From a virus, in IMG/VR virus record IMGVR_UViG_3300045988_183453: a stretch of DNA of 64,000 nucleotides; one strand, 5' to 3'. Position numbers and translations under genes: made by a program. Below, in pieces: positions 30,646 to 64,000 of this stretch. The notes beneath the pieces are model-generated. The model was given only the letters and a program-made list of their open reading frames with translations. It searched no databases and was not told the DNA's origin. Position 1 is the stretch's first letter. Each line of letters starts with the position of its first letter.

Positions 30646-30651
30646 AAGAAT

Positions 30652-38493: not shown

Positions 38494-38620
38494 AGAATTG
38501 ACACCTCCCACGATTTCAATCGTGGGATTCCCGGGTGGCGGTGGCAAGGCTTATCACCATGCCGCATACAAGGCAGCGAGTTATGCGGTTCCCCACCATC
38601 CGCTACGGGTGTAGCGCACA

Positions 38621-38866: not shown

Positions 38867-38996
38867 TCATTTAAAGAAAGGAGTAGCAGGGTATTTGTGC
38901 TAACTGAGTACACTTCAAATTGCCTCTTGGTTAGCGCATTCCTCACCGCCTAAGTCGCAAGCGACTATAGACGGTGTACCCTGCGCACATAATTTG

Positions 38997-39635
38997 ATGA
39001 AATGGATTGTCAAGCAAACCAAATCGAAAGGATATGAGTTCACCTTCGATATCGTGAAAGGCAAGGCCGTTATCGGGCAGGCACACTATATCCCGAAAAT
39101 GCTGCGGCAGGGTTATGGTATTCGACTGAATGATTCCAAGTTCCTGCTGCAATACATGCCAGCTGCTGACGCAAGGGCGTACATGCGCGGCATCAACACG
39201 AAAGATATTCTGAGACACCCTTTTGCTATCTGTGAGAACAACCGCACGGTAGGCGAGATTTCCGTCATCCATACAAAAACCGGATTCCTCCAAGGATACA
39301 ATTCTATCGCCATGCAGCTGTATGGCGAGGAATACCAGAGCTACAAAATCGGCTTTGGAAAAGAAGGAGTATGCTGCCCTGTATTCCTTTGCGGACAGCA
39401 AATCGCCCAAATCAATAAGAGCGCGGTGGTCAAGGATAATCTGGATGAATACCTGATTTACGCAGTGAATGAAAAGGCACTGATGCCGTCCGTCATGTTC
39501 GCCATTTATATCGATGGAATATACTACGCAAACCGAGGCGTGTATGTGGATGACGCAACGACTATCAACTGCGAATACAGCTTGAACGAGGAAGTTCTGT
39601 CCCACTACGACCCGAATTTTGTCAAGGGACTATGA
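38997..39635 (+). CDS. Hypothetical protein
   Basis: ATG 38997 (the track uses TTG 38994). A conserved ~55-nt module lies upstream, shared with 43264-43333. Confidence 0.5.
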   Translation: MKWIVKQTKSKGYEFTFDIVKGKAVIGQAHYIPKMLRQGYGIRLNDSKFLLQYMPAADARAYMRGINTKDILRHPFAICENNRTVGEISVIHTKTGFLQGYNSIAMQLYGEEYQSYKIGFGKEGVCCPVFLCGQQIAQINKSAVVKDNLDEYLIYAVNEKALMPSVMFAIYIDGIYYANRGVYVDDATTINCEYSLNEEVLSHYDPNFVKGL

Positions 39636-39676
39636 CTCCGATAACTGGTATTCACAGACAATATCATGTTGCGAAA

Positions 39677-39696
39677 CTGTGCGAATCGCAGACAAT
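39677..39696 (+). promoter_or_regulatory. Motif promoter P4 (CTGTGCGAATCGCAGACAAT)
   Basis: TTGCGA-N16-GACAAT. Confidence 0.55.
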
Positions 39697-39735
39697 TAAA
39701 AGTGAATGAATTACAAAAGCTACAGAGGATAAACA

Positions 39736-40332
39736 ATGAGCTATGAACCCATTATCACACCGGGCAGGAATTTCTTTCTTGTCTCGACGGAGTACAAAGA
39801 GAGCTGCTCTGCCTGGTGCCGCAAGCAAATTAGAGCGACACTGAGGACCTGTCAGGGACGAGTCATCATCATTGATGCAACGGGCGAGTACGCGGACTTG
39901 GCGCTTGAACATGACAGATTGATTCGAGAGAAAATTCCGTCCATTATTTATCGGTATAAGCTGGTGGACGGGAAACCGTATATTGCTCATGTCATTGAAG
40001 TTGATACGGAAGCAAATGAAGCACCGCACCTGATTGTATACGATATCAGCCGGACCATAATCATCAGCTGGAAGGTCGGCGTGGAAGCCGTCAATAAAAT
40101 CCTGCAATCCTATGCCGTGATGCAGGACAGTGAAATTGCGTGGCTGTATGTTCCGTTGGACCTATATACCAATGTCAAGCCCGAAAGCGAATCCTGGAAC
40201 ATTCTGGAACGAACCATCAAGGGCAATGAAGGAAAGCTCATGACAGTGCTAACGACTCGAAAATTCACCATCGGCATGGTTCAGCGCTGTTTGCATATGA
40301 CAAAAAATAAACTTTTGGAGGATAGCAAATGA
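39736..40332 (+). CDS. Hypothetical protein
   Basis: 198 aa with RBS AGAGGA. Confidence 0.5.
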   Translation: MSYEPIITPGRNFFLVSTEYKESCSAWCRKQIRATLRTCQGRVIIIDATGEYADLALEHDRLIREKIPSIIYRYKLVDGKPYIAHVIEVDTEANEAPHLIVYDISRTIIISWKVGVEAVNKILQSYAVMQDSEIAWLYVPLDLYTNVKPESESWNILERTIKGNEGKLMTVLTTRKFTIGMVQRCLHMTKNKLLEDSK

Positions 40333-41216
40333 CCAATGAACAGCTGAGAATCGCATTGACGGCGAATGCCGTTACCAAACAGACCCGTAACCATTTTGGG
40401 TTCAGTGACCCGTGTGGGAAGACTCTGGAAGAGTACAACAAATCTTCAACGCTTTGCTGTGTGACGGCAGCGCAGAAAATGAACACGCCGGGTTTCGAGC
40501 GTGTCCTTGCTGCACAGATTTTCCCCTGCTTCACCATCGGCTGCTGGAACCAGACGAAGACGGTCTATGATTTTGACTACGAGTTCCAGAAAATTCTTAT
40601 GGATACGGATGACATGGCGATTCATCAGGATATCCTGCAGCGGCTTCCGATTCGTGATTTCTTTATCCCGGTGTATGACAGCTACGACTACAACGGTATG
40701 TTCGTGCATGTGGAATTCGAAGAGAAAGAGAAGACCACTGCTTTCGGCATCGTTCTTGTCGGCCCGGCCAAAGGCAGCCATGATGATTTCACGTTCCTGA
40801 CTCTGCCTGCCTGGGCCAAAGAAAACCAGAGTTTGACGGAAGCAACTCGGAGCACGAAAGAATACCTGGAAAAGGCAGCCGGGCAGCGGCAGGTAAATGG
40901 TATCAGCGTACCGGCTGTGATGGAAGCAGTTCCTTCGGTCTTTGACGGCGGCACACCTTATGTTCGCCTGGCAATCCTGTGTGCCTACTATCTTGCCAGT
41001 AAGAACCCTGATGTCCGCTTGGAAACTTCCAAAAAGCGCGACCGCCCAGTATTCGTGTTTCAGGGAAAGGCACAGCGAATCAACGTCAAGACATATACCG
41101 TTGGTGAGAATGCGGCCAAAGAATACAAAAAGAATGGGGAAGGCAAAACTCCCCGCTGGCGGCATTACTGGTGCGGCAATGGCCGGGAACGCCGGGAATG
41201 CAAGTTTATTTACTGA
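40329..41216 (+). CDS. Hypothetical protein
   Basis: 295 aa; ATGA overlap with the upstream gene. Confidence 0.5.
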   Translation: MTNEQLRIALTANAVTKQTRNHFGFSDPCGKTLEEYNKSSTLCCVTAAQKMNTPGFERVLAAQIFPCFTIGCWNQTKTVYDFDYEFQKILMDTDDMAIHQDILQRLPIRDFFIPVYDSYDYNGMFVHVEFEEKEKTTAFGIVLVGPAKGSHDDFTFLTLPAWAKENQSLTEATRSTKEYLEKAAGQRQVNGISVPAVMEAVPSVFDGGTPYVRLAILCAYYLASKNPDVRLETSKKRDRPVFVFQGKAQRINVKTYTVGENAAKEYKKNGEGKTPRWRHYWCGNGRERRECKFIY

Positions 41217-41234
41217 TGGCGGTGAGGGTGAATC

Positions 41235-41942
41235 ATGGCTCCCCATACTTATCAGGACCCGATTGGGTTCTATGAATGGTTCGATGACCTTCCTTATGCT
41301 ATCCAGGATAGTATTCTGAAACACCTGCCGCATATGGAAGGCGAGGAATGGCTCATTGTCATTATCCTTGCAGCTCTTCTTCTGATGATTCTGGTTTCAG
41401 CGTATCTGGGCTTTGCAAGACATAATGTCAAAAAAACGAGTGAACGACTCAACGCTTTGAAAGAGCTGAACAACACGACTGAATTCATGCCGGTCGAGGC
41501 GCAGTACCGCTACTATCTACGTTCTGATACGAAGCTGGAATACGAGGAGTTCTCGCTCCCGAAATTCTTCCGCCGCGAAGTGAGAGAAAACTTTAAGCTG
41601 TTCAACACTCTTCTTGGCAATGCTCGGGCAAACACGGTATTGTATGAAACATACGGCCGCGAAATCCAGGAACTCCCGGATTGGACAGAATCGGATGACG
41701 ATTGCGGGCGGCATATCCCGTTCTTTCTCTACCACAACATCGAGAAAGAGTTGTACGATGAAACTGTCCTGGACTGCCCTGTAACGAGCCCTGAGTTTGT
41801 CTGTACGAAAAGCTATCTGCCCAAAGATGCCAAAGAGCCGATTGAGACGGAAGAGACCTATACACTGGAGGAACTGGAAGAGTACATACGCCGCTTGAAG
41901 GTTGCAGCCGATGTCAAGAAGAACAGCCAGAACGCAGGCTGA
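41235..41942 (+). CDS. Hypothetical membrane-anchored protein
   Basis: One TM helix (WLIVIILAALLLMILVSAYLGF) near the N-terminus. Confidence 0.5.
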   Translation: MAPHTYQDPIGFYEWFDDLPYAIQDSILKHLPHMEGEEWLIVIILAALLLMILVSAYLGFARHNVKKTSERLNALKELNNTTEFMPVEAQYRYYLRSDTKLEYEEFSLPKFFRREVRENFKLFNTLLGNARANTVLYETYGREIQELPDWTESDDDCGRHIPFFLYHNIEKELYDETVLDCPVTSPEFVCTKSYLPKDAKEPIETEETYTLEELEEYIRRLKVAADVKKNSQNAG

Positions 41943-42089
41943 AAAAGGCGGTAAACAAATGCAAGAGGCGGGAGTCCCGGGTTTGTTGGTTCCAGAACGT
42001 CTTCTCACCTTAATTTTACCAGCACTTTGATATTTTGTGGTTATTGACAAACGGCGCAAAAGGTGCTTGAGTTAAAAGCCATTGCAAAA

Positions 42090-42109
42090 AAGTGCGATAT
42101 CCATATAAT
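42090..42109 (+). promoter_or_regulatory. Degenerate motif promoter P14 (AAGTGCGATATCCATATAAT)
   Basis: TTGCAA-N16-TATAAT. The upstream repeat ccagcactttgatattttgtgg matches the 35816 repeats. Confidence 0.45.
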
Positions 42110-42139
42110 AAATTGAAATCCAAAAGGGAGATACACATT

Positions 42140-42748
42140 ATGAGTGAACAGAAAGAAAATGCTCAGCTCGAAGCTTATCGGAAGCTCGTTGAAGATTTCA
42201 AGCGCTTTGTCAGCTCTGAGATTCGGACGGAGGAAAACAGTTACCGAATTGTGGACATGACTTCTGAAGATGCCGAAATCAATGACCCTAGTGTTCCGGT
42301 AACTCAGCTGGAAGACGATAAGGCAGAGAAGCTTGCCGGTATCTGCATGGACCTGTCCAATGCCACGCTGTGGCTCTACTACAACCGTGACAAATTTGCA
42401 AACGTCGAGTTTATGCCCCTGACTGATGAAACTCTGAAAGAATACCAGAAGCAGGCTCAGAATGCTCTGAATGAACCGAAGAGCCCTCTGTATCTGAAAT
42501 CCTGGTATCAGCTCATTGAAATGTTGAGTCAGGAATGTATCCCGCAGCGCTACGAGGACGACGGTCAGCGATATACAGACGTCTATGTGAACACCTATAT
42601 GCTCATGTACCTGACCATGACCCGACTCAAGAATGGCGGCACCTTTACGCGCCTTGCAAACGGGCAGGGAAGCGATGCTGTGAAAATCACGACCATCGCA
42701 ATGTACTACTTCTCCAGCCTTTTGACGGTTCTCTGCACTGAATATTAA
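42140..42748 (+). CDS. Hypothetical protein
   Basis: Start MSEQKENAQ after the RBS AGGGAG; the track start 42092 lies in the promoter. Confidence 0.5.
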   Translation: MSEQKENAQLEAYRKLVEDFKRFVSSEIRTEENSYRIVDMTSEDAEINDPSVPVTQLEDDKAEKLAGICMDLSNATLWLYYNRDKFANVEFMPLTDETLKEYQKQAQNALNEPKSPLYLKSWYQLIEMLSQECIPQRYEDDGQRYTDVYVNTYMLMYLTMTRLKNGGTFTRLANGQGSDAVKITTIAMYYFSSLLTVLCTEY

Positions 42749-42823
42749 GAAATTTTTTCCCGTGTGAGCAGTGACGCTCATGCGGGAATTTTTTGTAATT
42801 TTCTATTGTCAATCTGTGCGAAT

Positions 42824-42843
42824 TGCGTACAATGAAAAATATA
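42824..42843 (+). promoter_or_regulatory. Motif promoter P5 (CTGTGCGAATTGCGTACAAT)
   Basis: TTGTCA-N16-TACAAT. Confidence 0.6.
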
Positions 42844-42866
42844 AACCAAAAATATATCTTATCGTT

Positions 42867-42903
42867 GTCCCGCATGAGTTGTTTGTGCGGGACTTTTTGT
42901 TTG
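42867..42903 (+). terminator. Leader (promoter-proximal) intrinsic terminator / attenuator
   Basis: gtcccgcatgagttgtttgtgcgggac followed by TTTTTGTTT, between P5 and the start codon at 42921. Confidence 0.55.
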
Positions 42904-42920
42904 CGGAAAGGAAATGCACT

Positions 42921-43127
42921 ATGTACGGTTTATCAGAAGAAAGCTTAACGATTGTTGGTGTTATTTTGATTGTGGTTGGTGTCGCTATGATTGGTTGGGG
43001 ATTTGAATGGAATCAGGACATTACCAATGATAAACGGGTCGGAACCGTTGTCAGAGACATTGGCGTTATGGTTTTGGCAACCGGCATCATATTTGTGATG
43101 CAGCGGGCAGTCAACAACCCCGCCTAA
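42921..43127 (+). CDS. Small membrane protein (68 aa)
   Basis: MYGLSEESLTIVGVILIVVGVAMIGWGFEW… after the RBS GAAAGGAAA. Its last 6 codons overlap the conserved structured module. Confidence 0.4.
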   Translation: MYGLSEESLTIVGVILIVVGVAMIGWGFEWNQDITNDKRVGTVVRDIGVMVLATGIIFVMQRAVNNPA

Positions 43128-43195
43128 ACCAGTTCGCCGGTTATAGGCGGGGCTTGCGGGGCAACCCGTAAGCCCGGTTGATTAGCCTTGGTGAA
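43118..43195 (+). ncRNA. Conserved structured RNA-like module, copy B
   Basis: caacaaccccgcctaaaccagttcgccggttataggcggggcttgcggggcaacccgtaagcccggttgattagcc. Same double-hairpin architecture as 30884-30958, with compensatory-looking loop differences. Confidence 0.45.
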
Positions 43196-43474
43196 CGGCA
43201 ACTTCGGTTGCTGCGAACTCCGTTATGCATTTGAGTAAGCAGGAAATGCTGTATCTTAGTCTTTTCTAAGAAGCGCATTCCTCCCCACCAAAGCCTTACG
43301 GCTATAGATGGGGTGTCCTGCTCCATTATCATGAAACTTACAAGAGTGAGCAGGCAGCTCAGAATGCCCGAAAGCAGATTACCCGGCGCGGTGAGACGGC
43401 AGTGTATGCCACAGTAGAGGAAGCCGAAGCGTGGGTCGAACAACAGAAGGCGGCAAGAACCAGGAGGTAATCAT

Positions 43475-44017
43475 ATGCGTACAGACAAAACAGCAAGCCA
43501 CATTTGCTACGAGCTTGACCACGATGTGCAGGAATATGCGAAACGGCTTTTAGCCAAAAAAGTTCTGCACGCGGTACGGCAGGACAATACTGCTTCATTG
43601 CCTGACGAAATGGCAAAAAAACTCTCCGAAACGGCAGTATTTCTGACCGAACGCCTCGCGCTTTTGTATGAGCTGAATTCTGGATTCCGAGGCATCCGAT
43701 TCAGCACTTTCGGAGAACAACCTGCTGTTTACACTACCATGGTCCAGCACAATGCTCCGCTGTACGATGAGCTGATGCTTGGACGGGCCTATAACCTTGC
43801 CAACTACCTTGCTGCTGATAACGCGGATATCAAAGAATCTGCTTTGATGAAGCACAAGGTTTTGGCAGCAATTTATAGTGCCGCTGCACACATGAAAGGG
43901 CAGACTCCGGAGCGGAGAAAAATCTCGATTCAGAACCAGCTGTTTGTGTCTACGGCTGTTGAGCTGTTTGATGGTCTTTTGAGTGCAGCGGAAGAGAAAA
44001 AAGAACGGCAGCGATAA
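43475..44017 (+). CDS. Hypothetical protein
   Basis: 180 aa with RBS AGGAGG. Confidence 0.5.
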   Translation: MRTDKTASHICYELDHDVQEYAKRLLAKKVLHAVRQDNTASLPDEMAKKLSETAVFLTERLALLYELNSGFRGIRFSTFGEQPAVYTTMVQHNAPLYDELMLGRAYNLANYLAADNADIKESALMKHKVLAAIYSAAAHMKGQTPERRKISIQNQLFVSTAVELFDGLLSAAEEKKERQR

Positions 44018-44052
44018 AAGTGCCGCCTGAGTTAGAAATTAGGAGAATTTGC

Positions 44053-44505
44053 ATGATTCGAGTTAAGAAAGAGAACCACCGTAGTTGGTTCATGAGCAAC
44101 TATTATCCTTGCGAATTTGTGATGAATGGGATTCGCTACAAGAACGCTGAAGCAGCGTTTCAGAGTCACAAGGTCCCACTGGAAGAGCGCAGACAGTTTG
44201 CGGACATGCCACCGGCTTCTGCCAAGCGCTTTGGCCGCAATGTAGCTATCCCCGCAAACTGGGGTGAGGCTCGGGACGACGTGATGCGCCGCGTGGTGAT
44301 GGCCAAGTTCGAGCAGAATGAGGACCTCAAACAGCGCCTCCTCGAAACGGGTACGCAGCCTATTGAGGAAGACACGACCAGCTGGCATGACAATTACTGG
44401 GGCAACTGCCACTGCCCGAAATGCCAGAACATCCCAGGTCAAAACCGGCTTGGGATTATTCTGATGGAAACGAGGGATAAACTGAAAAAGCAAGCGGGCA
44501 AATAA
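44053..44505 (+). CDS. NADAR-domain protein (YbiA-like ADP-ribose / N-glycosidase family)
   Basis: Colinear with E. coli YbiA: NYYPCEFVMNGIRYKNAEAAFQSHKV; VMRRVVMAKFEQNEDLKQRLLETG; SWHDNYWG…GQNRLGIILMETR. Confidence 0.85.
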   Translation: MIRVKKENHRSWFMSNYYPCEFVMNGIRYKNAEAAFQSHKVPLEERRQFADMPPASAKRFGRNVAIPANWGEARDDVMRRVVMAKFEQNEDLKQRLLETGTQPIEEDTTSWHDNYWGNCHCPKCQNIPGQNRLGIILMETRDKLKKQAGK

Positions 44506-44707: not shown

Positions 44708-46594
44708 TCACTGCACAATCTCGCCAAGGTCGTTTGCATATTTCGGGCCACACATCATGAAGTAGTTGACGGGGCCGTACTCCAGACCGAGCTCCTGCGC
44801 GTATGCCTTGATAGCTTCCAGAACGTCCTCTTTCTTGAGGCCAAACTTGGAATGCAGACGGGCAAACTCTTTGTCAGAGACAGAAACGCAAGAGCAATTT
44901 TCTGCATCGGTTTCTTTGCTGCCCAGCATCCCGTCAAAGATGTCCTGCCCTGCACAGAGAATCGTCTCATTGTTCATCGCATAGGCGATAACGGAAGCCT
45001 TACAGTCAAAGTCGCTGTCTTCCACAAGGAAATCCTCAGGGCGGCCGTGACGCTCAACAACGTTTTCATAGATGTCCCGGAGTTCGATAGGAGCAGAAGG
45101 AGCGGTCAGAGCTGCTTTATGAAGGCGCATGAATTCCACAAACTTTTCATTCGAGAGGGTATCGGTATAAAAGCCGATGCCGGAAACGCGAACCTTCACT
45201 TCGCTGGCAAAGTAATCGTCAATTTTGGAAACGATTTTCTGCTGGACCCGCTTGTATGCTTCCTGAACATTGGAAGCCGTGTAAAATACCGGGAACTTCA
45301 TGATGTCGATTCCCTCCGGCAGACTCGCGTCATAGGCCGCATCAATGCCACCTCGCAGCGCCGGAACCGCGTCATGCAGCTCTTTCACAGAAGAAATGTA
45401 TCCGGTAATGTACAGCTCATCGTTTTTGCTGTAATGCCCGATAAGTCCCACATAGAGGGTCTGCATCAGCATCCGCTTGAAGCTGAACCAACAAAGACGA
45501 ATGGGTAGAATGACATTAGCAGCCGTACCTTCCGCACGATAGGTGCCGGGGGCAGAGACCTTTTCCAGCAGAATCTGGTCGTTCTTGTCACCGTATTTTT
45601 CCTTGAAAAGAGCTTGAAGAATTTCAGTGGACGAAAGAGGAGTGGACATTGGAATCGTTTCATTCAGAAAAGAGAGGAATGCATCCACGTTGTCTTTCTG
45701 CCATGCGTCATCAGACATGCTTGCACGCTGCATAGAGAGCTTGTCTTTCCCGTCGTCAGGCAAGGGCTTATACCCACAGGCGATACGAAGCTCGTTCTCC
45801 GTGACAGCATCCGTTGCGCTTGCAATTTTCTTGATGGTATTTTCGGTCGGCTGAGCTTTTGCGTTGCCATTCACGAGGCTGCTGATATACCCACGAGTCA
45901 GTCCTGCCTGAAACGCAAACTTACCCTGTGTTCGGGTTCCGATGGCTTTTTTGACCAGCGATGCCAGCCTTTGAAAGTCGGGCTCTTTGGGAAAGGTGGC
46001 CTCCGTATCCTTATTGCTGTTCTTTTCAAGTACCGACTTGTCCCAACCGGTGACAAGAGAATACCCAATATCCCTCAAGGATTGATAGGCAACCCCATTC
46101 TGGTCAAGAGCCGGGGAGTATGTACCGCTGTTATCTTCCAGCTGCTCTACTGCGTCACGCACCATCCTTGCTTCGTTCATCAGGATGACGTCCGGGGCTT
46201 CAAGCCGGGCAAGACTCTTGTACCGATTATTGAGGCGCTCGACTCGTGCGGCCAATGCAGTGATGTTGGCAACTTGGTCTTCCGTTGCATGGGCAGAGAT
46301 ATCTGCACCAAGTTCAAAATGGTTCAGTGCAGGAATATCCACGCCTTTGCTCTTGGCGAATTCCACAATGGCTTCCGCGCCATAGAAACGCTTCTCATGG
46401 GCTGCGACAACTTTCGTTATCGTGTCGGCCGAGTTGTCCAGCTCAAGCACTTCACCTTTTCCGGCATCCTCGACATAACACCTGGCGTTGGTGAGAAAGC
46501 CTTTCAAAAAATCAGCATCCACATCCAGCTTCTTAGCGATGCCGGGCAGCTGCTTATAGAAAATCACGGGCGTGGCGAGGTTAACAGAAATCAT
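44708..46594 (-). CDS. Large protein with central XRE-type HTH (628 aa)
   Basis: Central GLTRGYISSLVNGNAKAQPTENTIKKIASATDAVTENELRIACGY, an HTH_XRE pattern. The flanking domains are unassigned. Confidence 0.55.
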   Translation of the reverse strand: MISVNLATPVIFYKQLPGIAKKLDVDADFLKGFLTNARCYVEDAGKGEVLELDNSADTITKVVAAHEKRFYGAEAIVEFAKSKGVDIPALNHFELGADISAHATEDQVANITALAARVERLNNRYKSLARLEAPDVILMNEARMVRDAVEQLEDNSGTYSPALDQNGVAYQSLRDIGYSLVTGWDKSVLEKNSNKDTEATFPKEPDFQRLASLVKKAIGTRTQGKFAFQAGLTRGYISSLVNGNAKAQPTENTIKKIASATDAVTENELRIACGYKPLPDDGKDKLSMQRASMSDDAWQKDNVDAFLSFLNETIPMSTPLSSTEILQALFKEKYGDKNDQILLEKVSAPGTYRAEGTAANVILPIRLCWFSFKRMLMQTLYVGLIGHYSKNDELYITGYISSVKELHDAVPALRGGIDAAYDASLPEGIDIMKFPVFYTASNVQEAYKRVQQKIVSKIDDYFASEVKVRVSGIGFYTDTLSNEKFVEFMRLHKAALTAPSAPIELRDIYENVVERHGRPEDFLVEDSDFDCKASVIAYAMNNETILCAGQDIFDGMLGSKETDAENCSCVSVSDKEFARLHSKFGLKKEDVLEAIKAYAQELGLEYGPVNYFMMCGPKYANDLGEIVQ

Positions 46595-54885: not shown

Positions 54886-54895
54886 CGCTTGCCAA

Positions 54896-54913
54896 AATAT
54901 ACGAACGCCGTAC
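54896..54913 (+). promoter_or_regulatory. Degenerate motif promoter P10 (ATACGAACGCCGTACAAT)
   Basis: TTGCCA-N16-TACAAT. Confidence 0.5.
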
Positions 54914-54969
54914 AATGTAAAGTGTGAACAGATACTAAGCAATCAGTAGGATTCACAATCTGTATTTTA

Positions 54970-55008
54970 AGCGGACTTATCCCATCACGGGGTAGGTCCG
55001 CTTTTTTT
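54970..55008 (+). terminator. Leader terminator before the MBL-fold lipoprotein gene
   Basis: agcggacttatcccatcacggggtaggtccgct followed by TTTTTTTG. The leader shares AGATACTA…TAGGATTCACA with the 47377 RNA. Confidence 0.6.
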
Positions 55009-55026
55009 GTTGAAAGGAGAAAAAGT

Positions 55027-58064: not shown

Positions 58065-59144
58065 ATGGCCACTATTAACAACGTGAAACATCTGACAGAA
58101 GAAGGAGTATATGAATTTCTTCACAACCCGAACGAGAATTATTTTGAGGGGTTCGCGGTAGATAAGGAACCCGCTTTCTATTGTCCACGCAACTGCGAAG
58201 ATGGAGCGTATATAAAGCTCTTCAAGGCCCCGGTTAACAGTAGGATGACAGAACTGTTTATGCAGAATTTTAGATGGAGCGCACGAGAAGGCTGTTACAA
58301 CACGCCGCTCCCTGAAGACTGCACAATCAGCTTTAAGCGTGCTGGATTTATTGCCGATTCATCCAAGTTCTGGATTTTGTCGGATTATCTTCTTAAAGTT
58401 TGCCCTAAATTGAAACCTGAATTAGCAGATTTTCGTCAGCAGTTTGAGCAGGCGTTCTGCAAGAAAATTCTCGATGATTTCAGTATAAGCCAAAGCCCTA
58501 TCAATAGCAAAGAAGCAGAAGAACGTGCAGAGCAGTATGCCATCTATGCTATGCTTGAAAAAGAACCGGTTTACCATGAATATGTACTTCAAGATGCAAT
58601 GAGCATTGTTCGCAGTTTTGGCTTTAGAAGCATGGCAAACTATATTCTTGACGCGAATGATTATCTTGAAAGTGCATTAGCCAATCTCAAAGATAGAGTA
58701 ATAAGAAGCTTTGTTTTTCAAGGAGTTTGGTACAGCAGACGAGCATATGAATTTCCTAAAAAAGTTGAAGCAGCAAGACTGGCAGATAAAATTGCACATA
58801 CGTTCATTGCTGACGACAACGAGTCTCAACGTATTGCAAAAAGTGTATGTGCATATTGCTCACGGGAACTTAATGATAGAAAAAACATGACCATCACGAT
58901 TGGAACCGGCGATGACAACGGCATTTCCGTTAAAGTTTCTTGCGATACCCTGCTTCATTACGAGCCAACCTCCAAAGAGGTTTTTGTCAATGTCAAATCC
59001 GCAAGCAAGAACGAACGCGAAAAAATCAATCAATACGTAAAAGACAACGGCACTTTTGTAAGCGAAGACCTTGTTCCAATGAGCCTTTTACAGTCTGTTG
59101 TCTCCTACGGTTTGGAATATTGGAATCGAGACTTTCCTGAATAA
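58065..59144 (+). CDS. Hypothetical protein
   Basis: 359 aa with RBS AGGAGG. Confidence 0.5.
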   Translation: MATINNVKHLTEEGVYEFLHNPNENYFEGFAVDKEPAFYCPRNCEDGAYIKLFKAPVNSRMTELFMQNFRWSAREGCYNTPLPEDCTISFKRAGFIADSSKFWILSDYLLKVCPKLKPELADFRQQFEQAFCKKILDDFSISQSPINSKEAEERAEQYAIYAMLEKEPVYHEYVLQDAMSIVRSFGFRSMANYILDANDYLESALANLKDRVIRSFVFQGVWYSRRAYEFPKKVEAARLADKIAHTFIADDNESQRIAKSVCAYCSRELNDRKNMTITIGTGDDNGISVKVSCDTLLHYEPTSKEVFVNVKSASKNEREKINQYVKDNGTFVSEDLVPMSLLQSVVSYGLEYWNRDFPE

Positions 59145-59301
59145 TAATCCTAGATATTTGTATCACTCATACAAGGCCGGAAAACTACTGGATTGATTTT
59201 CAAAAGCAATAGCAATCGAGACCACTGCCCCGAAAAGGGTAGTGGTCTTATTTTTTGCACAATACTTACCATAAATTACCAGAAAGAAAAACATTGTGCA
59301 T

Positions 59302-59321
59302 CTGTGCGAATTGCATATAAT
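59302..59321 (+). promoter_or_regulatory. Motif promoter P11 (CTGTGCGAATTGCATATAAT)
   Basis: TTGTGC-N16-TATAAT. Confidence 0.6.
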
Positions 59322-59388
59322 ACAAAATATAGAACGAAAGGCATCAAAAAATATCGTTGGTCGGGCAAAATTCGACCGAAAGGCTAGG

Positions 59389-59421
59389 GCAGGCTCAGTT
59401 TTGAACCTGCTCTTTCTTTTT
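59389..59421 (+). terminator. Leader terminator before the HTH-repeat gene trio
   Basis: gcaggctcagttttgaacctgc followed by TCTTTCTTTTT. A second upstream hairpin is tcggtcgggcaaaattcgaccga. Confidence 0.5.
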
Positions 59422-59433
59422 ATCGGAGGCTTT

Positions 59434-59961
59434 ATGTCAAACAAAGAGGAACGCATGAACCGCAATAAAAGCATCATCGAAGATTACAAAAATGGAAAGC
59501 CGATTTTAGAAATCGCGAGGGAATATAATCTTTCAGAAACGATGTGCTACAAGATTCTAAAAGGTACGCAGGAGCCGCCCCGTTATTTTGAAAAAAAGAG
59601 GAAGAGACTTACCACTCGAAATGAGCAGATTGTTAAACAGTATAAAGGCGGTATGACGGCCAGAGAATTGGGCAAGATGTACGGCATTTCCATGCAGCGT
59701 ATTTATGCAATCTTGCATTCGAGCGGAGAGTACGAAAGCCAAAAATACAATCATATTGAAACGACTCTCAAAAAAGAGAAAAAGATGCGGAACCAAACTT
59801 TTCTTGATGCTTACAAGAAAAATCCTCGAAAATCGATTATCGAGTTGAGCAGGGAGGTAAATATCAGCCCTTCACTAGGTTACCTTATCCTTCATCAAAA
59901 TGGGATTTACCAGTATAACGTAAAAGCCAGAGCTAAGGAGAATAGCGAAAATGCCGATTAA
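59434..59961 (+). CDS. Tandem HTH-repeat protein (3 repeats)
   Basis: Three ~50-aa repeats of the pattern Y(K/E)xGx(S/T)xxEIAxEYxISxxxxYxIL, resolvase/sigma-region-4-like HTHs. Confidence 0.6.
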   Translation: MSNKEERMNRNKSIIEDYKNGKPILEIAREYNLSETMCYKILKGTQEPPRYFEKKRKRLTTRNEQIVKQYKGGMTARELGKMYGISMQRIYAILHSSGEYESQKYNHIETTLKKEKKMRNQTFLDAYKKNPRKSIIELSREVNISPSLGYLILHQNGIYQYNVKARAKENSENAD

Positions 59962-60469
59962 CAAGATTACCCACATGTGTCTAACTCATGACAAAGTCAG
60001 AGCACGAAATGAAAAGATGCTGGAGGATGCCAAGGACGGTATGTCCCAGGAACAGCTGGCCGAAAAGTATCAAATTTGTGTTTCTACTGTCCGATATAGT
60101 CTGAAGGACTTTTACAAAGAACAGGCCCGGCAGAGGAAAGCAAAGAAGAAAGCCTGGCAAACCCAGATGATTCATGAATATGAGATGGGCGCAAAATCTC
60201 CGGAGCTCCAGGAAAAATACGGCATCAGTGGAACGCTCTTTTATCGGATTCTTCATGCGCATGGAAAGAATGGCCGACAAATCCACAGCCAAAACCGTAT
60301 CGAGACTGGCAAGAAAAGAAACGCCGAGATGGTCAGGAAATACAAAAACGGCGTTTCTGTCAAAGAGCTTGCGGAAGAATACGGGCTCAAAAAGGGAAGC
60401 GTATATCGCGCCATGAAGCGGTATAGTCCAGGCCCAGGGAAAAGTAAAAGTTGTCAAAGCGAGGAATAA
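59951..60469 (+). CDS. Tandem HTH-repeat protein (3 repeats), paralog
   Basis: DAKDGMSQEQLAEKYQICVSTVRYSL; EYEMGAKSPELQEKYGISGTLFYRIL; KYKNGVSVKELAEEYGLKKGSVYRAM. Overlaps the upstream gene. Confidence 0.6.
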   Translation: MPINKITHMCLTHDKVRARNEKMLEDAKDGMSQEQLAEKYQICVSTVRYSLKDFYKEQARQRKAKKKAWQTQMIHEYEMGAKSPELQEKYGISGTLFYRILHAHGKNGRQIHSQNRIETGKKRNAEMVRKYKNGVSVKELAEEYGLKKGSVYRAMKRYSPGPGKSKSCQSEE

Positions 60470-60473
60470 TTGC

Positions 60474-61427
60474 ATGGCTGCATCAAAGAAAGATGTTGCG
60501 AAGCAGCAGGTCAAAGAAGACCGCGAAAAGGTTCGGGAAATGTATCTTTCTGGCAAAACTGTCAAGGAAATCGCCAAGGAAACGTATTTTTCAAGCTCTT
60601 ATTGCTATGCCATGGTGAGAGACCTAGCAAAAGAAAAGAATCTTGCAAAGAAAGCAAAAAGAGCACCTCTCGACGAAGCTATGATTCAAGATGCGAAAGC
60701 CGGGATGACGGTTGCTGAAATCGCAAAGAAGCATGGCGTGACCTATCAGCAGTGCTACTATACTGTTTCTGAATACGCTCAAGCTACGATTAAGAAGAAC
60801 AAGAAAAAGCAGTCTGCTGCCACGAAAGTTCGCAATGCGGCTATGTTGGAAGATGCGAAAGCCGGAATGACTGATAAGGAAATCGCCAAAAAATACTTTT
60901 TGTCTCGAAGCAGTGTCCGTACCGTCCTTGCAGGGCATTTACATACAAATTCCAAAAAGTTGGATGAAAGGCGCAAGGCGATTCTTGCGGATTATGAGGC
61001 AGGAACGTCCTCAAAAGACATCTGTGAAAAATACGGTATTTCAAAATCCACTCTTTACAAGGACATACGCCAAATTGGAAAAACCTGTCAGGAATACTAT
61101 CACAAGGCGCTGAAAGACAAGACCAATCAAAGGAATTCCGATATTCGAAGCAAAATCGAAAGAGGGGTCTCGGTCAGCACTATTGCCAAGGAATACGGAA
61201 TCTCTAAAACGGCGATTTATGAAACGTTTCATCAGGAAAATGTCAGAGCTGGAATTTTACAGAAACGCGGCCGTCCGCGAAAAAACACGGAACGTAATGC
61301 ACTGATTGCTAAACGCCACAGGGAAGGCGAGAAGGTGCAGGCGCTTGCCACTGAATATAATCTCTCTGTTTCGACGGTAAACACTATTTGCAGTAGAAAC
61401 AAAAATCAGAATATAACCTCATATTAA
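60474..61427 (+). CDS. Tandem HTH-repeat protein (6 repeats), paralog
   Basis: Six repeats (…DAKAGMTVAEIAKKHGVTYQQCYY…, …DYEAGTSSKDICEKYGISKSTLYKDI…, etc.). Confidence 0.65.
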   Translation: MAASKKDVAKQQVKEDREKVREMYLSGKTVKEIAKETYFSSSYCYAMVRDLAKEKNLAKKAKRAPLDEAMIQDAKAGMTVAEIAKKHGVTYQQCYYTVSEYAQATIKKNKKKQSAATKVRNAAMLEDAKAGMTDKEIAKKYFLSRSSVRTVLAGHLHTNSKKLDERRKAILADYEAGTSSKDICEKYGISKSTLYKDIRQIGKTCQEYYHKALKDKTNQRNSDIRSKIERGVSVSTIAKEYGISKTAIYETFHQENVRAGILQKRGRPRKNTERNALIAKRHREGEKVQALATEYNLSVSTVNTICSRNKNQNITSY

Positions 61428-61430
61428 CAG

Positions 61431-61460
61431 GCTGCCATTTGGCGGCCTATTTCTTTTTTA
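61431..61460 (+). terminator. Rho-independent terminator
   Basis: ggctgcc-attt-ggcggcc followed by TATTTCTTTTTT. Confidence 0.6.
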
Positions 61461-61472: not shown

Positions 61473-62387
61473 ATGACAGACGACGTACGTAATTTAATTC
61501 GATTTGTGGTGGATGGCGATATTCGAAACGCGCAGACTCAGTGTCGAATCATGCTTGAAAAGAATGTACCCGAAAAGGACGCCAGGTTCAAAGAAAACGA
61601 ACTCAGAAAGTTGAATCTTCTGAAACCGGAACTGATTCAGCTGCCCGCCAACCTGGAAAACCTCTTGATTGCGGAGGATGCCACGAATTTCCCTGAGAGC
61701 CGGTTCCTGCTCCGCGAGGAGGAAGAAACAGTCATCAACAAGCTCTTGGCCACCAGAAAAGCAGCTTTAGCCATCAAGGAGCTTGGCATCCACTATACTT
61801 GCTCTTTGCTTTTGACGGGCCTTCCTGGTGTTGGTAAGACTGAATTGGCCCGCTACATTGCACACAAGGCGAATTTACCGTTTGTTTTCCTGAAATTTTC
61901 TGGCCTTGTCAATTCTGCTCTTGGCCGGACACAGCAGAACATCGGCAGAGTGTTCGATTACGCAAAGCGCACGCCTTGTGTTCTTTGTGTTGATGAAATT
62001 GATGCCATCGGAATGTGCCGTGGCAGCCGCGATGATGTCGCTGAAATGAGCCGCGTCACCATCGCATTGATGCAGGAACTTGACCGGCTCCCGAATGACG
62101 TCATTCTCATTGGCACTACAAACCGCGTCGATAACCTTGACGAAGCCCTCATTCGCCGATTCACTTTCAAACACCGCGTCAAGCCTTTAGGCGACGATGA
62201 TATGAAAGAACTGTGCAAGAAGTTCCTTGCTTCGGCAGACTATCCCTTCACGGAATCCGAACTCGACGAACTCTGCCATTCGCTGCGTGAACAGCGGACT
62301 GCCAGCGCCGCTGTCAATGCCTGTACAGAACGTATCGTTACACATATCGTATCGCAGCTGCCTGAAAATTCGGCAGATGCCGTGTAA
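61473..62387 (+). CDS. AAA+ family ATPase
   Basis: Walker A LLLTGLPGVGKTELA, Walker B VLCVDEIDAI, sensor-1 IGTTNR, and arginine finger region LIRRFTF. Confidence 0.8.
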   Translation: MTDDVRNLIRFVVDGDIRNAQTQCRIMLEKNVPEKDARFKENELRKLNLLKPELIQLPANLENLLIAEDATNFPESRFLLREEEETVINKLLATRKAALAIKELGIHYTCSLLLTGLPGVGKTELARYIAHKANLPFVFLKFSGLVNSALGRTQQNIGRVFDYAKRTPCVLCVDEIDAIGMCRGSRDDVAEMSRVTIALMQELDRLPNDVILIGTTNRVDNLDEALIRRFTFKHRVKPLGDDDMKELCKKFLASADYPFTESELDELCHSLREQRTASAAVNACTERIVTHIVSQLPENSADAV

Positions 62388-62427
62388 AAGTATGATAGCC
62401 TGGGAAGAAAGCCCTCGTCAGTTTAAG

Positions 62428-63090
62428 ATGTCCAAGCAACTCGATGAGGGAAAATTCGGAGAAGACTTGGCTCGCAAATTCCTTAACGACCCGATTATCA
62501 AAGTGAATCATGGCATTAGCCATTACGATGACGTGACTCAGGATAAATCATATCAAGACAAAGATACCGATTTCATTGTCTGGAAGAAGAATGGTAAGAC
62601 CTTTGGCCTGGAAGCGAAAGTGGACAGTCACAATACCGGAAATTTCTACCTGGAAACCTCGGTGGACTACTTCTCCATGGTGCCTGACGCTCTGAACGAA
62701 CAGCGGGTAGCGCGGCGGTATCGGGATGGCATCGACCCTTTATGGCACACCCCGGGCTGGGTATACAGGAGTGGTGCGGACCAGATTCTCTATTATTTCA
62801 GAACCACGCAGCTGCTTTACATTTTCTCCCGCGTTGATGTCTGGTTCTATGCTGAAAAGCTGATGCGCGGTGGAATTCATCTCGACCCCGGAATCAGAAA
62901 GCCAAAAATGTATTCTGCCGAAAATATCAGTGAACGCAATGGTTCCACTCTCTTCTTTGCCAACGGCTTATGCGTGAATGCTGAGCAGACATACAAGGCT
63001 TTAGGGGCGCAAAAAAGAGTCATTAAATACCAGGTTGAGAACCCGAATTCAGACGTCCCAACGTTCAGCTTTTGCCCTTTCAAATTATGA
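62428..63090 (+). CDS. Hypothetical protein with PD-(D/E)xK-like nuclease motif
   Basis: DKDTDFIVWKKNGKTFGLEAKVD is a D…(E)xK arrangement. The start is ambiguous (62377, 62392 or 62428), overlapping or adjacent to the AAA gene. Confidence 0.45.
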   Translation: MSKQLDEGKFGEDLARKFLNDPIIKVNHGISHYDDVTQDKSYQDKDTDFIVWKKNGKTFGLEAKVDSHNTGNFYLETSVDYFSMVPDALNEQRVARRYRDGIDPLWHTPGWVYRSGADQILYYFRTTQLLYIFSRVDVWFYAEKLMRGGIHLDPGIRKPKMYSAENISERNGSTLFFANGLCVNAEQTYKALGAQKRVIKYQVENPNSDVPTFSFCPFKL

Positions 63091-63294: not shown

Positions 63295-63373
63295 TCGTGG
63301 GATGAAAGGCGTTAAGAACGAATCAATTCACGCTGCATATCCGCAAGATGGACAGCATTTTTTTGCTGTCAAA

Positions 63374-63393
63374 GCGTGCGAATTGCGTACCAT
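63374..63393 (+). promoter_or_regulatory. Motif promoter P12 (GCGTGCGAATTGCGTACCAT) directly upstream of tnpB
   Basis: 17 of 19 identical to P5; the tnpB RBS AAAGGAGG follows. Confidence 0.55.
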
Positions 63394-63429
63394 AGATAGT
63401 AGATTCTAAAGAAAAGGAGGCTACTACTC

Positions 63430-64000
63430 ATGCGTCTGGTTGTTAAAACTTACAAGTATAAGCTGTACAACAGTAAAAAGAACAGATACCTGGTGCGCCA
63501 GATTGAACTTGCCTCCGAGATTTGGAATTTTTGCATTGCTATGCGGCGTATGTACTATTTGGTCTATGGCAAAACGCTTAAAGCCAATGATTTGAAAAAG
63601 TACATTGCTAAAATCTGCAAGCGCCGCAAGTGGGCACATTGGCATAATCTCGGCAGCCAGGCGATTCAGGATGTGGTGGAACGGGTTGACCGTGCCTATA
63701 AAGCCTATTTCGATAATAAGAAAAAGGAGCATCCAAAAAAGAAGTCCCTACCAAAATTCAAGAAGCGTGAACTGTACAAAAGTTTTACACTCAAGCAAGC
63801 AGGCTACAAGTTTGAAGGAAAAGGCCGCATTACCATCAATGGCAAAAGGTATCGGTATTTTGATTCTCGGCCATTGAAAGGTAAAGTGAAAACCTTAACC
63901 GTCAAGCGCGACAATTTGGGCGACATCTATATTTTTGCCGTCACGCAGGAAGAATACAATGAAGTCCTTCCACGAGCAGGTAAAGCTGTCGGGATGGATT
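63430..64000 (+). CDS. tnpB: TnpB (IS200/IS605 OrfB family RNA-guided nuclease-like protein), N-terminal 190 aa, truncated by the window end
   Basis: MRLVVKTYKYKLYNSKKNRYLVRQIELASEIWNFCI… matches the OrfB_IS605 N-terminal pattern (yKfrlyP.k.q…r.vyN). Also …KFKKRELYKSFTLKQ…GKVKTLTVKRDNLGDIYIFAV. The frame stays open to the window end and is not in the ORF track for that reason. Confidence 0.75.
   Translation, partial: MRLVVKTYKYKLYNSKKNRYLVRQIELASEIWNFCIAMRRMYYLVYGKTLKANDLKKYIAKICKRRKWAHWHNLGSQAIQDVVERVDRAYKAYFDNKKKEHPKKKSLPKFKKRELYKSFTLKQAGYKFEGKGRITINGKRYRYFDSRPLKGKVKTLTVKRDNLGDIYIFAVTQEEYNEVLPRAGKAVGMD

Follow-up and report, generated by a model that had tools for sequence, protein, structure and literature searches.

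What would a plasmid do with three consecutive genes whose products contain nothing but HTH units, and what DNA would such proteins read? The genes lie in a window of 64 kb (the whole stretch of DNA analysed here) from a plasmid-like, conjugative replicon of 200-370 kb that belongs to uncultured Clostridia of the gut and whose genes include a T4SS coupling protein and a VirB4-like protein. The element is very common in the human gut, with a single 90%-identity cluster comprising 2,572 member sequences. An earlier note, made from the sequence alone, had described three paralogous ORFs of 3 + 3 + 6 HTH repeats resembling those of resolvases and sigma region 4, transcribed from an element-wide promoter motif through a leader terminator and followed directly by an AAA+ ATPase gene. 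All of these features were recovered (Table 1).

Table 1 Features of the tandem-HTH operon and its flanks, in window positions
Feature	Position	Strand	Details
Intrinsic terminator of the upstream gene (58065-59144)	59218..59249	+	13-bp stem, then T tract
Operon promoter, TTGTGC-ATCTGTGCGAATTGCA-TATAAT	59294..59321	+	PWM score 39.6
First leader hairpin	59359..59377	+	leader RNA fold, z = -2.6
Leader terminator/attenuator	59387..59421	+	imperfect 8+3 bp stem, then TTTCTTTTT
Protein A	59434..59961	+	175 aa, pI 9.7, three HTH units
Protein A HTH units	59452-59565, 59608-59721, 59779-59898	+	
Protein B	59951..60469	+	172 aa, pI 9.8, three HTH units
Protein B HTH units	59993-60109, 60143-60259, 60305-60421	+	
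Protein C	60474..61427	+	317 aa, pI 9.8, net charge +30, six HTH units
Protein C HTH units	60510-60623, 60657-60773, 60816-60935, 60954-61073, 61116-61235, 61278-61397	+	
Hairpin and T tract between C and the AAA gene	61429..61459	+	8-bp stem (6 GC pairs), then ATTTCTTTTTT
AAA+ ATPase, classical clade, IetA-like	61473..62387	+	304 aa; PF00004 E 4.7e-29
232-aa protein, coupled translationally to the AAA gene	62392..63090	+	no family match

The three ORFs are all present on the plus strand and metagenome gene callers predict the same three genes, of 175, 172 and 317 aa. Each is preceded by a Shine-Dalgarno sequence, the end of A overlaps the start of B by 11 nt and only 4 nt separate B from C; A, B and C are translationally coupled paralogues. 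Between strains their dN/dS is 0.15-0.33, compared with 0.04-0.06 for neighbouring genes, indicating that they are real genes under purifying selection. Positive selection on the HTH genes was considered and rejected, as these ratios denote relaxed yet purifying selection.

Within each protein, the three-helix HTH units (3, 3 and 6, each of ~40 aa) and their linkers of 6-19 aa fill the chain, leaving tails of at most 20 aa. An HMM of the unit recovered all 3 + 3 + 6 (per-unit i-Evalue 1e-14 to 1e-19) and gave no further match with E < ~1 among 702 window ORFs, but it was trained on the units of A, B and C themselves and so the independent evidence carries more weight. In Pfam, five separate stretches of C are recognised by HTH_23 (E 1e-27) and likewise by HTH_28 (E 1e-25), and four by HTH_7 (E 3e-25), while in A and in B two stretches are matched and the third unit is recognised by further HTH families. 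Blastp aligns the three proteins with one another in multiple registers, at E 1e-7 to 1e-24, confirming that they are paralogous, and an AlphaFold2 model of C contains six three-helix units (pLDDT ~80-93) separated by disordered linkers. The linkers are mostly basic, with net charges of +2 to +5, although two of nine are 0 or -1. The units are HTHs of the resolvase, sigma-region-4 or Mor type.

Judged by sequence, each unit resembles the C-terminal HTH of the Mor/C and CD3324 proteins. The Mor profile (PF08765) matches two to three stretches per protein with its positions 57-101 of 107 (E 4e-11 to 3e-7), phrog_836 and phrog_532, annotated 'late transcriptional activator', give E 5e-22 to 1.5e-11, and the CD3324 model (NF040785, cutoff 65 bits) scores 84.8 bits with C over four stretches, covering only its positions 39-82 of 82, and 51.9 and 57.6 bits with A and B. 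Mor and C of Mu, which activate late transcription, carry a single HTH per chain in addition to a dimerisation domain at the N terminus and recognise a dyad adjacent to the -35 element, whereas positions 1-56 of the Mor profile are unmatched by A, B and C, in which HTHs are instead joined covalently in tandem.

No recognisable effector or oligomerisation domain was found in the three proteins. Sigma-70 region 2, responsible for -10 recognition and core binding, is lacking, and of the serine recombinases only the HTH_7 family is represented, the Resolvase domain being unmatched. The earlier note had also raised a centromere-binding partition adaptor or a packaging organiser akin to a terminase small subunit, and either is now very improbable. 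Terminase small subunits yielded only weak single-unit PHROG matches and no large terminase is adjacent; the sole 'terminase' PHROG match in fact falls on the P-loop of the VirB4-like protein, and the proteins scanned included no large terminase, portal or capsid protein, whereas a T4SS coupling protein and a VirB4-like protein are encoded on the element. With respect to partition, the neighbouring ATPase is a classical AAA+ protein with no ParA/Walker-type, TubZ or ParM partner alongside and no tandem array of centromere-like repeats. Moreover, the HTH genes are dispensable and variable in number.

Tandem three-helix HTHs that read adjacent major grooves are known from Pipsqueak (four psq repeats), Pax, Myb R1R2R3, Tc3/Mos1 and IS21/IS630. 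The Pfam families HTH_psq, CENP-B_N and HTH_Tnp match the units, the NCBIfam IS21 N-terminal pair spans two of them and Foldseek returned a match to Tc3 (1U78). This likeness is at the generic HTH superfamily level only, as A, B and C have no catalytic or other domain, contain more units and occur in another phylogenetic context.

Tandem-HTH readers of long sites are well studied in eukaryotes (Pax, Myb, Pipsqueak), but those of prokaryotes known to have been studied are essentially only Cbp1 and Cbp2, which bind the CRISPR DNA repeats of Sulfolobales and Desulfurococcales. The trio is an uncharacterised bacterial counterpart of archaeal Cbp1. Cbp2 (2LVS) is the best PDB sequence relative of C (phmmer E 0.005), while the NCBIfam Cbp1 model (NF040595), the cutoff of which is 140, gives 50.2 bits with C (E 2.4e-13), 25.9 with A and 20.8 with B. 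The units share a similar motif, L/Y..G.s..EIA......S.vY, and Cbp1 and Cbp2 follow the same principle as A, B and C, being small basic proteins of only three (Cbp1) or two (Cbp2) imperfect HTHs with basic linkers, in which distinct, non-interacting units are laid along one site of ~25 bp. In Cbp1, three HTHs are aligned along one 25-bp CRISPR repeat (PMC10883916, PMC3597662). Unlike these archaeal, chromosomal proteins, A, B and C are bacterial and plasmid-borne and have no Cren7 partner, and they extend the building principle to as many as six units per chain and to three paralogous chains encoded in a row in one operon. The earlier note had envisaged either recognition of extended sites or binding to long arrays of DNA repeats; the former is plausible by analogy with Cbp1, but for the latter no CRISPR-like or long tandem array was found in the 64 kb window.

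The reading favoured here, which is held tentatively, is that A, B and C are binders of long asymmetric sites, acting as fast-evolving accessory regulators or in a chromatin-like manner. The analysis directly shows how the proteins are built, their HTH fold and basic charge, the signals for co-expression, the purifying selection on the genes and their distribution; DNA binding itself, the footprint size, the regulatory role and the nature of the targets we infer as follows. The proteins would be monomeric and bind as 'beads-on-a-string', with each ~40-aa unit presumably derived from a Mor/C-CD3324 type domain and short, mostly basic linkers tethering successive units, so that these would occupy successive major grooves of one DNA molecule. 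The three HTHs of Cbp1 on the CRISPR repeat and the bipartite domains of Pax and Tc3 have been shown to sit in successive major grooves in this way. As the 12 units are all different (7-43% pairwise identity), each is expected to recognise a long site that is asymmetric, predicted to span ~25-30 bp in the case of A and B and ~50-60 bp in that of C. Translational coupling would ensure that the three proteins are made together from the strongest copy of the promoter family, with the conserved leader terminator throttling output and the reduced transcription carrying on into the IetA-like AAA+ gene and the further coupled gene. Most likely they would occlude or silence targets that are specific to a lineage, either on the megaplasmid or in the host. 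Support for this reading comes from the 12 HTH units recovered by Pfam, NCBIfam and PHROG scans, self-alignment and AlphaFold2, the pI of ~9.8, the mostly basic linkers, the precedent of Cbp1 and Cbp2 and the position of Cbp2 as best PDB relative, as well as from the coupled starts, the best promoter copy, the leader terminator, the dN/dS values, the fast divergence and the variable gene number. Furthermore, a distant poly-HTH relative (L010) occupies a phage late-regulatory position beside sigma-like and Mor genes, which supports the same reading. Counting against it, a leader terminator is an unusual control for an autoregulated repressor, no DNA target of A, B or C was identified, and the only long composite repeats in the window are those of the promoter family. 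The lack of a recognisable effector or oligomerisation domain, the poorly conserved recognition helices and the mixed contexts of distant relatives also weigh against it.

Comparison of lineages shows how fluid the trio is. The 3+3+6 arrangement is found in 61 of 69 main-lineage loci from IMG/VR and metagenomes, and the unit number of C is polymorphic, with five-unit forms in three of the 69 and length variants besides. HTH gene number differs by lineage (3, 2, 1 or 0); A is the most widely retained paralogue, with orthologues in three lineages, whereas C is confined to the main lineage and a lipoprotein-like ORF takes its place elsewhere. Units C3-C5 of C resemble the B units. Orthologues of A and B are 28-38% identical between lineages where the AAA+ ATPases are 60-63% identical, and what is conserved is the HTH scaffold residues and the basic charge, not the recognition-helix residues. 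Poor conservation of the recognition helices could equally mean non-specific binding, and on this alternative the trio would be nucleoid-associated or coating proteins of high avidity, whose many weak HTHs would cover, condense or shield the 200-370 kb element, for instance as it enters a new cell, with no defined target sequence. We regard such a coat as rather unlikely. The drift of the recognition helices, the constraint relaxed relative to neighbouring genes, the freely varying numbers of units and genes and the possession of the strongest promoter copy all fit it, as does a locus region rich in anti-defence-like genes (e.g. AcrVA2-like and NADAR). However, the 12 units are kept distinct and their order is colinear between orthologues, as in Cbp1, suggesting that each position has a role of its own; a conserved leader terminator that limits expression is odd for an abundant coat; and a natural variant (L273), in which the HTH gene has been lost by deletion, shows the proteins to be dispensable there.

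Transcription of the operon bears on a further proposal of the earlier note, that the trio reads the promoter motif itself. The upstream terminator bounds the HTH transcription unit on its 5' side and the promoter beyond it is the top-scoring of 18 PWM matches in the window, 17 of which are on the plus strand, where shuffled sequences are expected to give 0.35. It belongs to repeat family D1/D2. The family motif, TTGc-N6-GTGCGAATTGC-aTAcAAT, occurs in 17 copies on the same strand, is asymmetric and has a conserved part of ~29 bp with three information peaks spaced 11-12 bp apart; the spacer block (GTGCGAAT) is conserved to the same degree as the hexamers and there is no conserved sequence upstream of the -35 element. 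Compared by eye with the cre, Spo0A and LexA boxes, the spacer block bears no convincing likeness to them. The motif also lies upstream of the orthologous operons in two other lineages (the 63% and 60% lineages), and a scan of a genome collection with it returned a distant relative in a Clostridiales MAG together with chance or cyanobacterial matches.

Conjugative plasmids do carry HTH regulators, such as KorA (TrfB) and KorB of RK2 and ArdK of R388, whose operators recur in many plasmid promoters, and the trio could by comparison be a global, autoregulating reader of the element-wide motif. Single units of A, B and C superpose on these regulators at 1.5-1.7 A and the window has a regulon-like promoter family. 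The same-strand copies with their spacer block as conserved as the hexamers, the match of three peaks to three HTHs, the asymmetry expected of a monomeric multi-HTH reader and the best match lying at the operon's own promoter would all suit this role, and the window yielded just one other DNA-binding protein, which is of XRE type, 628 aa long and encoded on the minus strand. The comparative evidence nevertheless speaks against it, making it distinctly unlikely. The motif stays the same in lineages whose A and B orthologues share only 28-38% identity and differ in their recognition helices, it is kept in a far more distant relative with only 45-56% protein identity, and it persists in L273, which has no HTH gene; C is absent from all lineages but the main one. 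Moreover, the housekeeping sigma factor accounts for the -35 and -10 peaks, which leaves only ~9 bp in need of a special reader. KorA and ArdK are also one-HTH dimers that bind palindromic operators, whereas A, B and C are tandem arrays. The trio is thus probably not the reader of the motif, and the search for the real one is redirected.

Between promoter and A, the leader terminator ends 4 nt before the RBS (59425-59429). An equivalent leader hairpin and U tract with an identical GCAGGNUC...GANCCUGC stem is present in L149 (z = -6.0) and L271; the terminator is conserved in three lineages. Rfam recognised no known RNA element in the leader, and its one match in the window, at 30883-31141, is to a HEARO RNA. 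At the other end of the HTH genes, the hairpin following C is probably a partial terminator and would reduce expression of the distal genes. There is no motif promoter between C and the AAA gene, which is within the same transcription unit as A, B and C.

The ATPase matches PADLOC IetA over ~240 residues (E 4.8e-55), phrog_3757 over its full length (E 2.7e-59) and NCBIfam IteA with 167.6 bits, which is under the cutoff of 510. The subtilisin-like IetS protease that accompanies IetA in IetAS is absent and in its place is the 232-aa protein, for which nothing was found in Pfam, NCBIfam, PADLOC or PHROG and for which the AlphaFold2 model was unusable (pLDDT 34, shallow alignment). It may be a PD-(D/E)xK-type nuclease, a putative assignment based solely on a D...ExK motif seen by eye. 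In the 63% and 60% lineages the AAA gene is likewise followed by a homologue of this protein, and the order HTH genes, AAA gene, 232-aa homologue is kept in these and in the main lineage.

Such an arrangement invites an explanation in which A, B and C would be the subunits for DNA recognition or control in a conflict module formed with the IetA-like AAA+ protein and the putative nuclease, serving defence, plasmid competition or addiction, with the HTH arrays supplying target specificity. The single transcription unit, the conserved gene order and the matches of the ATPase to IetA models are in keeping with this, as are the rates of divergence, since fast HTH proteins (~30% identity) and a fast 232-aa homologue (34%) beside a slow ATPase (63%) resemble specificity and effector parts beside a motor; in L008, an unrelated poly-HTH gene is likewise followed by a multi-AAA protein. 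A role of this kind is unlikely all the same. L273 has lost its HTH gene but retains those for the AAA protein, the Zn-ribbon protein and the 232-aa homologue, AAA homologues at 57-62% identity (L245, L276) lie among wholly different genes with no HTH array, an AAA gene is lacking at most other poly-HTH loci, the IetS partner is missing and the nuclease assignment hangs on the motif seen by eye. Linkage of HTH arrays to AAA genes as a general rule was accordingly rejected, as these AAA homologues have no HTH neighbours and most of the distant poly-HTH genes have no AAA neighbour.

Beyond the element itself, megablast of the locus against phage and plasmid collections found no match. More than 100 other protein clusters with 3-12 such units occur in metagenomes, phages and archaea, none of which is characterised. 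A search of representatives shows hundreds of uncharacterised proteins with 3-12 such units in bacteria, archaea and phages. Distant relatives occur in mixed contexts (HNH, transposase, AAA, archaeal chromosome), which indicate no single function. Close DNA relatives were sought with tblastn of C and B, which gave marginal two-unit matches only, and a genome collection searched with protein C gave nothing; nor did the literature on tandem-HTH proteins of plasmids yield anything specific. An identity of the element with pMMCAT, a gut megaplasmid of Bacteroidales that is present in PLSDB (PMC12056005), was rejected, as the locus has no PLSDB match.

Should the targets of the long-site binders favoured here be mapped, they would show how a large plasmid of uncultured gut bacteria controls or protects its own DNA and would test whether modular combination of HTH units allows long sites to be read. 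An improbable further reading is that A, B and C form a modular DNA-reading system of 12 distinct units on three co-translated chains, a prokaryotic analogue of zinc-finger or TALE-type recognition, in which recombination between units would retarget recognition of 25-60 bp sites; gut megaplasmids would use it to silence competing elements or genes of the host in a lineage-specific way, and it might pass targets on to the AAA+ and putative nuclease pair. Metagenomes contain in-register unit deletions, five- versus six-unit forms and A-C chimeras.

The earlier note had described three consecutive ORFs, here A, B and C, as built solely of tandem HTH repeats (3 + 3 + 6), and all three were confirmed on the + strand, with the same products found in independent gene calls on near-identical metagenome contigs. 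All three have Shine-Dalgarno sequences, with an 11-nt overlap between A and B and a gap of only 4 nt between B and C, indicating that they are translationally coupled. Twelve single repeats (units) of 38-40 aa were delimited, joined by mostly basic linkers of 6-19 aa and flanked by N- and C-terminal tails of no more than 20 aa, so the description was correct. A unit HMM recovered all 12 (i-Evalues 1e-14 to 1e-19) and gave no other match with E below ~1 among the 702 ORFs of the window, although this is circular because the model was made from the units themselves. In Pfam searches five separate stretches of C were matched by HTH_23, likewise by HTH_28, and four by HTH_7; A and B each had two such stretches as well as matches to other HTH families. 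The proteins also align with one another in several registers (blastp, E 1e-7 to 1e-24). The unit consensus, RN..h...Y..G.s..EIA.kYgIS..TvY, agrees with the repeat motif given in the earlier note, although identity among the 12 units is only 7-43%. An AlphaFold2 model of C has six three-helix units (pLDDT ~80-93) connected by low-confidence linkers (pTM 0.29), so that C is modelled as a flexible string of beads. All three proteins are basic (pI 9.7-9.8; net charges +14, +16 and +30 for A, B and C). The tandem-HTH observation is therefore real and cleanly confirmed, while the interpretation first placed on it is supported in part.

Features of the HTH operon and of the replicon that carries it
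Feature	Position (nt)	Strand	Details
VirD4-type coupling protein	1489-3657
VirB4/TraG-like ATPase	6824-9493
HEARO RNA	30883-31141	+	Rfam RF02033, 96 bits
NgoFVII-like PLD nuclease	36248-38413		Pfam hit
AcrVA2-like protein	40329-41216		Pfam hit
NADAR domain protein	44053-44505		Pfam hit
628-aa protein	44711-46594	-	internal XRE-type HTH_3
Strong terminator	59218-59249		ends upstream gene
Operon promoter	59294-59321		TTGTGC-ATCTGTGCGAATTGCA-TATAAT
Second leader hairpin	59387-59412		followed by TTTCTTTTT
A	59434-59961	+	175 aa; units at residues 7-44, 59-96, 116-155
B	59951-60469	+	172 aa; units at residues 15-53, 65-103, 119-157
C	60474-61427	+	317 aa; units at residues 13-50, 62-100, 115-154, 161-200, 215-254, 269-308
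Second hairpin and T tract	61429-61459		between C and AAA gene
AAA gene	61473-62387		classical-clade AAA+
232-aa gene	62392-63090		coupled to AAA gene

The best family matches of the units always involve the DNA-binding HTH part alone: the Mor profile was matched at positions 57-101 of 107 and the CD3324 family model in its C-terminal half, and the PHROG 'late transcriptional activator' families 836 and 532, resolvase HTH_7, Sigma-70 region 4 and the N-terminal bipartite HTH of IS21 and IS630 transposases were also among them. Cbp2 (2LVS) was the only PDB chain with E below 0.01 by sequence search. To our knowledge, the only prokaryotic proteins of this design to have been studied, with nothing but tandem HTHs and basic linkers, are Cbp1 and Cbp2, and by analogy they are the closest functional counterpart of A, B and C. 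Cbp1 aligns three HTHs 5' to 3' on one 25-bp CRISPR repeat (PMC3597662, PMC10883916), while Cbp2 is a two-unit CRISPR repeat-binding protein, compared with six units in C. Membership of the Cbp1/Cbp2 family itself was rejected, as the NCBIfam Cbp1 model matched C (E 2.4e-13) far below the model's cutoff.

Our tentative best explanation is that A, B and C are Cbp1-type multi-HTH binders of long sites, acting as accessory, lineage-specific regulators or chromatin-like proteins. As monomers built from Mor/CD3324-like HTHs, they would place successive units in successive major grooves while the basic linkers contact the backbone or minor groove, giving a long asymmetric site per chain of ~25-30 bp for A and B and ~50-60 bp for C. 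Because every unit is different and orthologues keep their units in colinear order, each chain should read such a site; the main rival, that these basic proteins coat DNA non-specifically in the manner of nucleoid proteins, is considered unlikely. The analysis establishes the architecture, fold and charge of the proteins, their expression signals, selection and distribution, from which DNA binding, footprint size, targets and regulatory effect are inferred; occlusion or silencing would be the most likely action. A strong promoter drives joint production of the three proteins, with a conserved attenuator placed ahead of them.

In the window's own lineage the 3 + 3 + 6 arrangement is found in 61 of 69 loci, and three have a five-unit C. 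Database proteins that differ from C in length do so through in-register deletions between units, and one A-C chimera was also seen. Strain comparisons give dN/dS values of 0.15-0.33 for A, B and C and of 0.04-0.06 for the AAA and 232-aa genes, showing that the HTH genes are genuine and under constraint, though 3-5 times more weakly than their neighbours. In a lineage with 63% AAA identity to the window C is missing and the order is promoter motif, A', B', a lipoprotein-like ORF, AAA, a Zn-ribbon protein and the 232-aa homologue. Orthologue identity is 28-38% for A and 31% for B, with only scaffold positions conserved and exposed recognition-helix positions differing. In the 60% lineage, locus L271 has only an A-like gene left and L273 has lost even this through a natural deletion via short microhomology (L273 5338-5943 versus L271 4745-5943), which leaves ~15 codons from the start of the A-like gene fused to the middle of the lipoprotein-like gene that follows; the AAA gene, downstream genes and motif promoters were retained. 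Relatives with 57-62% AAA identity (L245, L276) have the AAA gene among unrelated genes, without HTH array or motif promoter. A, B and C diverge rapidly, vary in unit and gene number and are dispensable, all of which marks them as accessory, and they lie outside the element's conserved core circuitry.

Transcription from a motif promoter through a leader terminator had also been proposed, and both elements are present. The promoter family (consensus TTGc-N6-GTGCGAATTGC-aTAcAAT) has 17 copies by PWM, all on the + strand, against 0.35 expected in shuffles; they span 24271-63394 (for example 30785, 38465, 39669, 42806, 49681 and 59294), while the T4SS part, which makes up the first 24 kb, has none. 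Within the motif, the spacer block is conserved as strongly as the -35 and -10 hexamers. The 105-nt leader of the HTH operon forms two hairpins, the second ending with its T tract just before the ribosome-binding site and missed by a consensus terminator scan owing to a mismatch in its stem. In two diverged lineages the orthologous operons likewise have a hairpin and U tract in front of them, built on the same GCAGGNUC/GANCCUGC stem (z = -6.0 in one), so the leader terminator is a conserved feature. Strong leader hairpins with U tracts also occur between other motif promoters and their first genes (30618-30780, 42806-42905, 54889-55010), pointing to attenuation or antitermination control across the element, or to small RNAs. 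HEARO is an HNH-endonuclease/IscB-associated RNA; in the window it comes directly after two motif promoters, and the gene that follows is flotillin-like, not an IscB/HNH gene, with a partial copy (80 nt, 94% identity) 12 kb away at 43109-43188.

It is very doubtful that A, B or C reads this promoter motif, as the earlier note had suggested. The conserved block is asymmetric and ~29 bp long with three information peaks one helical turn apart, its best match is the HTH operon's own promoter, and no other DNA-binding protein was found in the window except the 628-aa XRE-type protein; two of the three peaks, however, are ordinary -35 and -10 hexamers. Moreover, the motif is identical across lineages whose HTH proteins have diverged to ~30% identity, and is kept both in L273, which lacks the HTH gene, and in a relative sharing only 45-56% protein identity with the window. 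A motif reader should be a conserved protein, whereas no proteins of the operon are less conserved than A, B and C, and C occurs in the main lineage only. The XRE-type protein is a candidate alternative regulator of the promoter family; its gene, one of few on the minus strand, lies on the opposite strand just upstream of a motif promoter at 46820.

The claimed AAA+ neighbour is indeed present (PF00004, E 4.7e-29), and matches PADLOC IetA (E 4.8e-55), NCBIfam IteA (167.6 bits, cutoff 510) and, over its full length, phrog_3757; an IetS-type protease is absent beside it. The 232-aa protein has no family match and its AlphaFold model is unusable (pLDDT 34), but a D...ExK motif seen by eye and kept in diverged homologues makes it a putative nuclease. 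A hairpin and T tract separate C from the AAA gene and no motif promoter lies between them, so both downstream genes are read-through products. That A, B and C serve as specificity subunits of an AAA and putative-nuclease conflict module would fit the shared operon, the divergence pattern (HTH and 232-aa proteins fast, ATPase slow) and a second, unrelated poly-HTH gene also followed by a multi-AAA protein, but is improbable, since in L273, L245 and L276 the ATPase is present without HTH genes and hence does not depend on them. Beyond the 232-aa gene, 63366-64000 holds a motif promoter and an ORF from 63429 (MRLVVKTYKYKLYNSKKN...) that runs off the window end and by eye looks like the N-terminus of a TnpB / IS605 OrfB protein; relatives such as L001 have a different gene at this point.

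The suggested partition and packaging (terminase-small-subunit-like) roles found no backing: the window has no ParA-like partner or centromere-like repeats, and no packaging genes were found. Since the window has genes for a T4SS coupling protein and a VirB4-like protein, and no capsid, portal or terminase was found among the proteins scanned, the element is probably either a plasmid wrongly filed with the viruses or a phage-plasmid with structural genes outside the window. Its nearest coupling proteins are those of Clostridium megaplasmids (30% identity), and a distant relative with the same promoter motif lies on a 224 kb contig assigned to a Clostridiales MAG; we therefore regard the element as a large conjugative replicon of plasmid type, presumably hosted by uncultured gut Clostridia. 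The HTH locus has no megablast match in phage or plasmid collections and is very common in human-gut metagenomes (2,572 member sequences in one 90%-identity cluster of C alone), on contigs of up to 250-280 kb, or 370 kb in a sister lineage. Many of these are listed as viral in IMG/VR (L015-L159, 25-390 kb). Nearly all window genes are on the + strand and many are without known function; UmuC-like polymerase and UvrD-like helicase genes are present, and the 24-46 kb part carries AcrVA2-like, NADAR, PLD-nuclease, flotillin and VWA genes. A possible anti-defence or conflict cluster occupies 36248-44505, its assignments being Pfam hits precomputed on an identical contig. Two adjacent paralogous genes without assigned family (24877-26061 and 26177-27241) have DNA repeats within and upstream of them that are 71-82% identical (families D3, D10 and D16).

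A HMMER scan of 1.84 billion representative proteins gave 907 clusters at E <=1e-3; more than 100 of these have 3-12 units, and their proteins reach 2,823 aa. Around 20 multi-HTH proteins of cultured phages align over most of C in predicted structures, nearly all 'uncharacterized' or nameless in the tables used. A literature search on tandem-HTH plasmid proteins found only Cbp1/Cbp2 and eukaryotic or transposon examples, so this widely distributed architecture has hardly been studied in bacteria. A, B and C are thus best seen as a fresh variation on an established kind, the tandem-HTH protein that reads an extended site; they belong to a large, uncharacterised protein class and come from an element very common in the human gut. 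The contexts of distant poly-HTH genes are heterogeneous, including a phage late region beside a sigma-like gene, a Mor gene and a holin (L010), an HNH endonuclease (L161) and a transposase (L160). In L008 (6694-10312; also L007 and L009) a 285-aa poly-HTH protein 27% identical to C directly precedes a >900-aa protein with three classical AAA modules, in an AT-rich, chromosomal setting adjoining flagellar genes. An independent trio of consecutive poly-HTH paralogues (412, 476 and 140 aa, with Mor/HTH-type units) is found at 6757-9859 of L162, an archaeal chromosome by appearance that carries MCM-intein, TYW2 and SPP genes.
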